NCBI RefSeq assembly: GCF_002854065.1
Contig: NZ_CP024147.1
DNA from: Escherichia coli
Lineage (GTDB): Bacteria; Pseudomonadota; Gammaproteobacteria; Enterobacterales; Enterobacteriaceae
Length of the DNA: 64,000 bases
Strand: one strand, 5' to 3'
A program made the position numbers and the translations under genes. Under the pieces are notes generated by a model, which had not been told where the DNA came from, searched no databases, and worked only from the letters and a program-made list of their open reading frames with translations. Of this stretch, positions 934-1,913 are shown in pieces (position 1 is the first letter of the stretch; every line of letters starts with the position of its first letter).

Positions 934-1913
934 ATGAATATGGAAGAAATTGTGGCCCTTAGTGTAAAGCATAACGTCTCGGATCTACACCTGTGCAGCG
1001 CCTGGCCCGCACGATGGCGCATTCGCGGGCTAATGGAAGCTGCGCCGTTTGATGCGCCGGACGTCGAAGAGCTACTGCGGGAGTGGCTGGATGACGATCA
1101 GCGGGCAATATTGCTGGAGAATGGTCAGCTGGATTTTGCCGTGTCGCTGACGGAAAACCAGCGATTGCGTGGCAGTGCGTTCGCGCAACGGCAAGGTATT
1201 TCTCTGGCGTTACGGCTGTTACCTTCGCACTGCCCGCAGCTCGAACAGCTTGGCGCACCACCGGTATTGCCGGAATTACTCAAGAGCGAGAATGGCCTGA
1301 TTCTGGTGACGGGGCGACGGGGAGTGGAAAATCTACCACGCTGGCGGCGATGGTTGGTTATCTCAATCAACATGCTGATGCGCATATTCTGACGCTGGAA
1401 GATCCTGTTGAATATCTCTATGCCAGCCAGCGATGTTTGATCCAGCAGCGGGAAATCGGTTTGCATTGTATGACGTTCGCATCGGGATTGCGGGCCGCAT
1501 TGCGGGAAGATCCTGATGTGATTTTGCTCGGAGAGCTGCGTGACAGCGAGACAATCCGTCTGGCGCTGACGGCGGCAGAAACCGGGCATCTGGTGCTGGC
1601 AACCTTACATACACGTGGTGCCGCGCAGGTAGTTGAGCGACTTGTGGATTCATTTCCAGCGCAGGAAAAAGATCCCGTGCGTAATCAACTGGCAGGTAGT
1701 TTACGGGCAGTGCTGTCACAAAAGCTGGAAGTGGATAAACAGGAAGGACGCGTGGCGCTGTTTGAATTACTGATTAATACACCCGCGGTGGGGAATTTGA
1801 TTCGCGAAGGGAAAACCCACCAGTTACCGCATGTTATTCAAACTGGGCAACAGGTGGGGATGATAACGTTTCAGCAGAGTTATCAGCAGCGGGTGGGGGA
1901 AGGGCGTTTGTGA
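934..1913 (+). pseudogene. yggR: PilT-like type IV pilus retraction ATPase homolog, disrupted by a 1-bp frameshift in the Walker A region
   Basis: Two consecutive ORFs (859-1392 frame 1, 1350-1913 frame 3) together give YggR; frame 1 reads LILVTG then nonsense, frame 3 reads ATGSGKSTTLAAMVGY; switch lies in the G-run at 1311-1314. Confidence 0.7.

Follow-up and report, generated by a model that had tools for sequence, protein, structure and literature searches.

Probable inherited frameshift in the Walker A-coding G-run of yggR, a PilT-family gene, in a clone of Escherichia coli

The window analysed here, a stretch of 64,000 nucleotides from Escherichia coli, contains a copy of yggR whose reading frame is broken inside the segment coding for the ATP-binding loop of a PilT-like ATPase. 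Such a break within a run of G residues raises the question of whether the gene has genuinely been lost in this strain or whether one base of a homopolymer has been missed in sequencing. The original prediction, which had been made from the DNA letters of the window, left both readings standing.

Reading frames of yggR and the Walker A motif

The yggR pseudogene, coding for a PilT/PilU-family retraction ATPase of type IVa pili, occupies positions 934..1913 on the plus strand and comprises 980 nt instead of the 981 nt of intact alleles. Read directly from the window sequence, the gene starts with ATG at 934-936, ends with TGA at 1911-1913, and contains the GGGG run at 1311-1314. Alignment with the intact alleles of K-12 and strain GF3-3 identifies this G4 run (1311..1314, plus strand) as the site of a 1-base deletion from an ancestral G5. 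The codons at the run are ACG GGG|CGA in the window but ACG GGG GCG in the intact alleles. Since the deletion is read off directly against reference alleles, chance plays no role. The 25-mer at the G4 junction is CTGGTGACGGGGCGACGGGGAGTGG, the intact counterpart of which is the G5 form. Translation of 934-1314 gives 127 codons ending with ...SENGLILVTG, up to G127, the first glycine of Walker A. The original prediction had found the same end point, LILVTG, for the N-terminal part in frame 1, although it counted 126 residues where there are 127. The N-terminal fragment ORF (934..1392, plus strand, 152 aa) consists of these 127 native residues followed by 25 out-of-frame residues, RRGVENLPRWRRWLVISINMLMRIF, and a TGA at 1390-1392. 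The rest of the native frame lies in frame 3 (1314..1913, plus strand) and carries ATGSGKSTT..., Walker B (DVILLGELRD), ATLHT, and AVGNLIRE. Its translation starts with ATGSGKSTTLAAMVGY... and is open to the natural stop; frame 3 from position 1314 reads ATGSGKSTTLAAMVGYLNQ... with no interruption. The longest ATG-initiated ORF of this downstream frame (1350..1913, plus strand, 187 aa) is without the P-loop. When one G is added back, a clean 326-codon ORF results, with the junction ...LVTGATGSGKSTT. A frameshift test found 980 nt against 981 nt and no second, compensating indel, as is the case for a pseudogene. Both the frames and the alignment with intact alleles bear out what had been predicted, namely that a PilT-like yggR has lost one base from the G-run coding for the start of Walker A, with the junction at GGGG 1311-1314, the rest of the protein in frame 3, and restoration by an extra G. 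A second G4 run in the stretch coding for Walker A (1319..1322, plus strand) is intact in the window.

The gene sits between yggS and ruvX/yqgE/gshB, the standard position in E. coli. The divergent neighbour yggS (212..916, minus strand), coding for a PLP homeostasis protein, is intact. The start codons of yggS and yggR are only 17 bp apart (917-933), so that each promoter must sit within the coding sequence of the other gene. The spacer between yggR and ruvX (about 1914-2090) is filled with REP-like repeats.

For all protein analyses, we used YggR reconstructed by adding one G back. The restored protein matches the Pfam family T2SSE (PF00437) with an E-value of 8.7e-50 and aligns over residues 1-324 with PilT from Pseudomonas aeruginosa (PDB 3JVU, E=1.4e-82), as well as with other solved PilT hexamers (6OJX, 2EWV, 2GSZ). 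The stretch G127-ATGS-G132-K133-S134-T135 of YggR (GATGSGKST) superposes on GPTGSGKST, the Walker A motif of PilT in 3JVU. In the same alignment, DVILLGELRD, ATLHT, and AVGNLIRE, all of which reside in the downstream frame only, match the Walker B region, the His-box, and the AIRNLIRE motif of PilT. Walker A, the Walker B region (DIILVGEMRD in PilT), and the HT motif are thus common to P. aeruginosa PilT (3JVU/3JVV) and restored YggR, whereas YggR has the variant AVGNLIRE where PilT has AIRNLIRE. Unlike that of PilT, the reading frame of the window yggR is broken inside Walker A. P-loop Pfam models match residues 118-141 of the restored protein only. A Pfam search with the 152-aa product gave no match, and the 187-aa product matches T2SSE partially, in the distal part only (E=3.4e-34). 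The P-loop pattern GxxxxGK[ST] is absent from any single frame, with G127 in frame 1 and ATGSGKS in frame 3. Because the P-loop is split over two frames, the yggR of the window is a pseudogene of the PilT/PilU family and not as a functional member. The prediction that the break destroys the ATP-binding loop is in line with this result, as the frame is lost directly past the first Walker A glycine. We consider it an ordinary pseudogene from a family that is well known, and RefSeq has already flagged the identical allele.

The gene is almost universal in the species. Among 5426 complete E. coli genomes, yggR is present over at least 80% of its length in 5424, and 5422 of these copies are less than 99% identical to the window allele. 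K-12 YggR (WP_001326494.1) is encoded at the same yggS-ruvX locus by a gene one base longer, with 30 SNPs to the window, and the closest intact allele, that of strain GF3-3 (WP_001625905.1), differs by 9 SNPs. Compared with both, the window allele has one G fewer in the Walker A run and a private Ala-to-Val change (1630). Since K-12 and GF3-3 have GGGGG and 981 nt, and yggR of Salmonella is also 981 bp when intact (PMC8731237), G5 is the ancestral state and the window carries a 1-base deletion. The dN/dS ratios among yggR alleles range from 0.04 to 0.10, and the gene is thus normally under purifying selection. Each frameshifted yggR allele examined gives a clean 326-aa ORF once one G is restored.

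Agreement between assemblies of one clone

At 99% identity or above, the window yggR is matched in just two complete E. coli genomes, namely those of strain 100416 from human stool in the Gambia (H1) and strain CUWW06 from wastewater in Thailand (H2). In both, yggR is 980 nt long, has the same G4, and is labelled "frameshifted" in RefSeq, where the two genes are listed as the pseudogenes ACU5SM_RS04285 (100416) and ACNHKQ_RS18970 (CUWW06). Both have the identical deletion and share their clone and haplotype with the window. The comparison with related yggR alleles that had been suggested as a check hence gives a consistent picture, with G5 in K-12 and GF3-3 and G4 in the relatives of the clone. 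Both genomes are about 99.96% identical to the window. Positions 1-12509 align with strain 100416 over 12.5 kb with 3 SNPs and 0 indels, and positions 13277-64000, an inverted segment of about 50.7 kb, with 22 SNPs and three single-base indels; the alignment with CUWW06 covers 29.3 kb with 10 SNPs and 0 indels. Over 63.2 kb, the window and strain 100416 therefore differ by 25 SNPs and three single-base indels, none of which breaks a gene of the window. The indels are located in an intergenic T-run (26401), in a REP element (53785), and in an A9/A10 run in yghB (57255), where the copy of strain 100416 is broken and that of the window is not.

Could the strain truly have GGGGG and an intact yggR, with the missing base a homopolymer error of sequencing or assembly? 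Some long-read platforms are known to undercall G5 runs. One of the supporting assemblies is also not free of suspicion: yghB (56611-57270) is intact in the window with A9, and strain 100416 has A10 and a copy flagged as "frameshifted", a difference that reflects a true polymorphism or else an indel introduced in the assembly of strain 100416. Not all supporting assemblies are perfect, then, and strain 100416 likely has an indel problem at this A9/A10 run. Furthermore, CUWW06 and CUPF12, another G4 strain described below, come from one study. However, the window agrees with strains 100416 and CUWW06 at essentially every other homopolymer, and the audit of indels against these two genomes rules out an error-prone assembly. 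The same lesion is found in independently sequenced relatives whose assemblies otherwise agree at homopolymers, as an inherited deletion would be.

The same G4 allele is also present in an NCBI draft contig (L006) and in the Logan assembly of ERR3970133 (L007), so that no fewer than five genomes of the clone, each assembled separately, have the allele. The exact 187-aa product with the Ala-to-Val change is called in these two and in a 4.64-Mb contig, and the exact 152-aa product (P0016) occurs in 42 contigs and in 111 index blocks from NCBI, ENA, JGI, and Logan. Nor is G4 randomly scattered among genomes. With a junction-centred 84-nt query, in which G4 was scored as a match over 84 rather than 85 bases, we found G4 at the yggR site in 4 of 4730 complete E. 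coli genomes: strains 100416, CUWW06, CUPF12 (H55), and isolate 30859_5#32 (H56). The G4 allele follows one haplotype across many independent assemblies, a pattern that random miscalling of a homopolymer cannot produce. It is this agreement between assemblies that speaks against a sequencing error, and with 0 gaps against the two closest genomes over 12.5 kb and 29.3 kb, an intact gene hidden by a miscalled base seems next to negligible as an explanation. The other reading offered by the original prediction, genuine pseudogenisation, is favoured by the recurrence of the same allele in independent assemblies of the clone. The frameshift is very probably a genuine, vertically inherited, loss-of-function mutation, and it should be left as it stands, not "corrected" in the belief that the assembly is wrong. 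The G4 allele can also be used as a clonal marker for the lineage seen in the Gambia and Thailand.

As for the age of the lesion, the yggR alleles of the window and strain 100416 are separated by 0 synonymous and one nonsynonymous difference. The latter is a C-to-T change at position 1630 (plus strand) that replaces Ala with Val; it is private to the sub-lineage of the window, L006, and L007 and sets it apart from strains 100416 and CUWW06. With this single further change, the lesion is young on the timescale of the gene. It nevertheless predates the common ancestor of the window strain, 100416 (Gambia), and CUWW06 (Thailand). About 3-4 differences per 10 kb separate these three, which at clock rates typical of E. 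coli would suggest an age on the order of centuries.

Recurrent loss of one G on different haplotypes

The two remaining G4 genomes do not belong to the clone. The yggR of CUPF12 is the K-12 sequence except for the G deletion, and that of isolate 30859_5#32 represents a third haplotype with 33-34 differences from the others. Both are RefSeq pseudogenes (ACNHKR_RS03915 and ABGU48_RS04400, respectively) with the identical deletion on haplotypes unrelated to that of the window (29-34 differences), implying independent deletion events. The truncated product of isolate 30859_5#32 is identical to P0026, found in 13 contigs, and P0027 (10 contigs) represents a further G4 background. The same loss from G5 to G4 is thus seen on at least three yggR haplotypes. 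We considered the spread of G4 between haplotypes by recombination unlikely, as SNPs that tell the G4 haplotypes apart are found only 14 nt (1328) and about 50 nt (1261) away from the run. With SNPs so near, independent mutation is more parsimonious than the transfer of a tiny recombinant patch. Between CUPF12 and isolate 30859_5#32, whose yggR sequences are identical between 1261 and 1409, sharing of G4 via recombination is formally conceivable.

The intact gene contains just three homopolymers of at least five bases, namely the G5 of Walker A, an A5, and a G5 six codons ahead of the stop, which makes the Walker A run an obvious target for slippage and, given its repeated loss of a G, a probable hotspot of it. 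In further public alleles, the frame is lost at the adjacent G4 run (1319-1322), as deduced from their proteins: P0029 would fit a change from G4 to G3 and P0030 one from G4 to G5. Frameshifts slightly downstream are found in the public alleles P0017 and P0023. Outside the genus, yggR has been inactivated in one lineage of Salmonella enterica serovar Saintpaul, lineage IB, and is intact in its sisters (PMC8731237). The loss in Saintpaul differs from the frameshift in the window in that it arose from a premature stop introduced by a SNP, which cut the gene to 153 bp (PMC8731237).

Recurrence at one base could also be read as the mark of a selected off-switch, in which loss of retraction is favoured in some niches, for instance through resistance to phages that depend on pilus retraction or through hyperpiliation, by selection or slow phase variation and not by neutral decay. 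The change from G5 to G4 on at least three haplotype backgrounds with many contigs each, the intact remainder of the pilus machinery in strain 100416, and the persistence of the allele across continents within one clone are what such a switch might leave behind. However, a tract of five bases is far shorter than known contingency tracts. Phase-variable loci typically have tracts of at least seven and mixed ON and OFF states in close relatives; the tract here has five bases when ON and four when OFF, and all five clone members examined are OFF, without any mixture. The allele is also rare (4 of the 4730 genomes), mutation bias alone predicts repeated hits at this run, since the essential part of the gene has no other long stretch of G, and the nearby frameshifts (P0017, P0023, P0029, P0030) together with the Saintpaul stop (PMC8731237) resemble sporadic loss by any route. 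We therefore regard selection for an off state as improbable. It seems equally improbable that the run is a switch to which selection has turned repeatedly, with independent lineages dropping the PilT motor at the same base and keeping the other type IVa pilus genes, for instance to evade retraction-dependent phages or stay piliated, and with rare slippage or reversion able to restore the wild-type protein. Mutation bias best accounts for the repeated breakage of this run, and its independent failure in several lineages, in a gene otherwise under purifying selection, makes a textbook case of mutation-biased gene loss.

Consequences for the type IVa pilus and other features of the window

In the mechanism we propose, replication slippage would have shortened the G5 run coding for Gly127-Ala128 of YggR to G4. 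Translation from the ATG at 934 leaves the native frame directly past the first Walker A glycine and stops 25 codons later, and the remainder of the ATPase is without the P-loop and without an obvious start signal. ATPases of the PilT family depend on the Walker A lysine for ATP binding, and the G4 allele is therefore presumably null. In E. coli strains with this PilT orthologue, PilU is not predicted (bioRxiv 10.1101/2021.10.23.465551), and no compensating paralogue is therefore expected. The cell would lose its only PilT-type retraction ATPase and, judging from the sister genome, keep the genes for the pilin, extension ATPase, platform, alignment, and secretin. The pilus, if ever expressed, should assemble but not retract.

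A null allele would be circumvented if a -1 slip of the ribosome restored wild-type YggR, leaving a leaky or down-tuned gene. Some features of the site would allow it. The P-site tRNA-Gly could slip from GGG at 1312-1314 to GGG at 1311-1313 with perfect re-pairing, and the product would be the wild type, ...TGATGSGKS. The slip site precedes a rare CGA codon, and the downstream frame of yggR is fully open with one extra substitution only. A young lesion, however, explains the open downstream frame equally well. At GAC GGG GCG A, the slippery heptamer X XXY YYZ is absent, as is an upstream Shine-Dalgarno-like stimulator, and the fold of the 90 nt downstream is no better than that of shuffled sequences (z = +0.50). 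The yggR run accordingly has neither the heptamer nor the downstream structure or Shine-Dalgarno-like element by which programmed -1 ribosomal frameshifting is recognised. Rfam gave no match in yggR, and the flanks of the run are the same as in intact alleles, with nothing evolved to promote shifting. We hold expression by recoding to be highly improbable and retain the reading of the G4 allele as a probable null.

The remaining genes of the type IVa pilus and DNA-uptake machinery, ppdD, hofB (annotated as gspE), hofC, and hofMNOPQ, are intact according to the annotation of the sister genome, strain 100416. As read from this annotation, the clone has lost only the retraction ATPase and not the whole type IVa system, and we rejected the idea that type IVa pilus genes are decaying generally in the clone. 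The aside in the original prediction, which likened the break to the decay of pilus genes common in host-adapted lineages, finds no support in an ordinary E. coli clone with these genes intact in its sister genome. A Shigella or otherwise host-adapted genome had to be considered since a 25-kb query from the window gave hundreds of matches, with IS copies throughout, and synteny was lost at about 13.3 kb. It was rejected because 100416 and CUWW06, to which the window is about 99.96% identical, are ordinary E. coli strains and because the loss of synteny reflects a single IS1-associated inversion. In addition, yggR is the sole pseudogene in 70 kb of strain 100416, comprising the 12.5 kb co-linear with the window and sequence beyond, and no large internal repeats were found within the window.

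The functional cost of losing yggR may be small, perhaps nil. [quoted passage not shown] In the literature available to us, we found yggR mentioned only incidentally and no functional study of the E. coli protein. We suggest that annotation of the window strain note the absence of the sole PilT-type retraction ATPase that E. coli has. Studies of the E. coli type IV pilus could also draw on natural G4 strains as existing backgrounds deficient in retraction.

The IS1 at the break in synteny (about 12508-13276) joins a truncated lipoprotein gene (12235-12513, plus strand) to a piece of flp (13277-13329, minus strand), which is the first 53 nt of a gene for a type IVb pilin of the Flp family. No matching copy of a 9-bp target duplication flanks this IS1. 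Relative to strain 100416, the junction corresponds to an inversion of about 108.5 kb (784980-893439 of that genome). As the junction cuts flp, a second pilus system is disrupted in the window strain. In strain 100416 (NZ_CM128593.1, 784000-802000), the Tad/Flp island beside the breakpoint is degraded, with the CpaF ATPase truncated by IS1B, tssB frameshifted, and the DotU and JetD genes partial. CUWW06 has a different IS1 insertion, in a gene for a winged-helix regulator (window equivalent 13613-13621), which indicates that IS1 is active in the clone.

An accessory cluster at 26403-36257 encodes a fatty acyl-AMP ligase, an epimerase, an acyl carrier protein, and a serine palmitoyltransferase (spt), together with LptF/LptG paralogues, a YtfJ-family protein, and an "LPS biosynthesis protein". 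This gene content suggests the synthesis and export of a sphingolipid-like lipid. A 24.7-kb query including the cluster was covered to at least 80% in 4026 of 5426 E. coli genomes. In CUWW06, one gene of the cluster has an internal stop caused by a SNP at window position 34867. Rfam matches in the window correspond to the C0719 sRNA (17214-17435), the ES173 sRNA (59569-59632), and two copies of the REP-type naRNA4 (42669-42745 and 53718-53788); the C0719 sRNA is placed between glcA and glcB.
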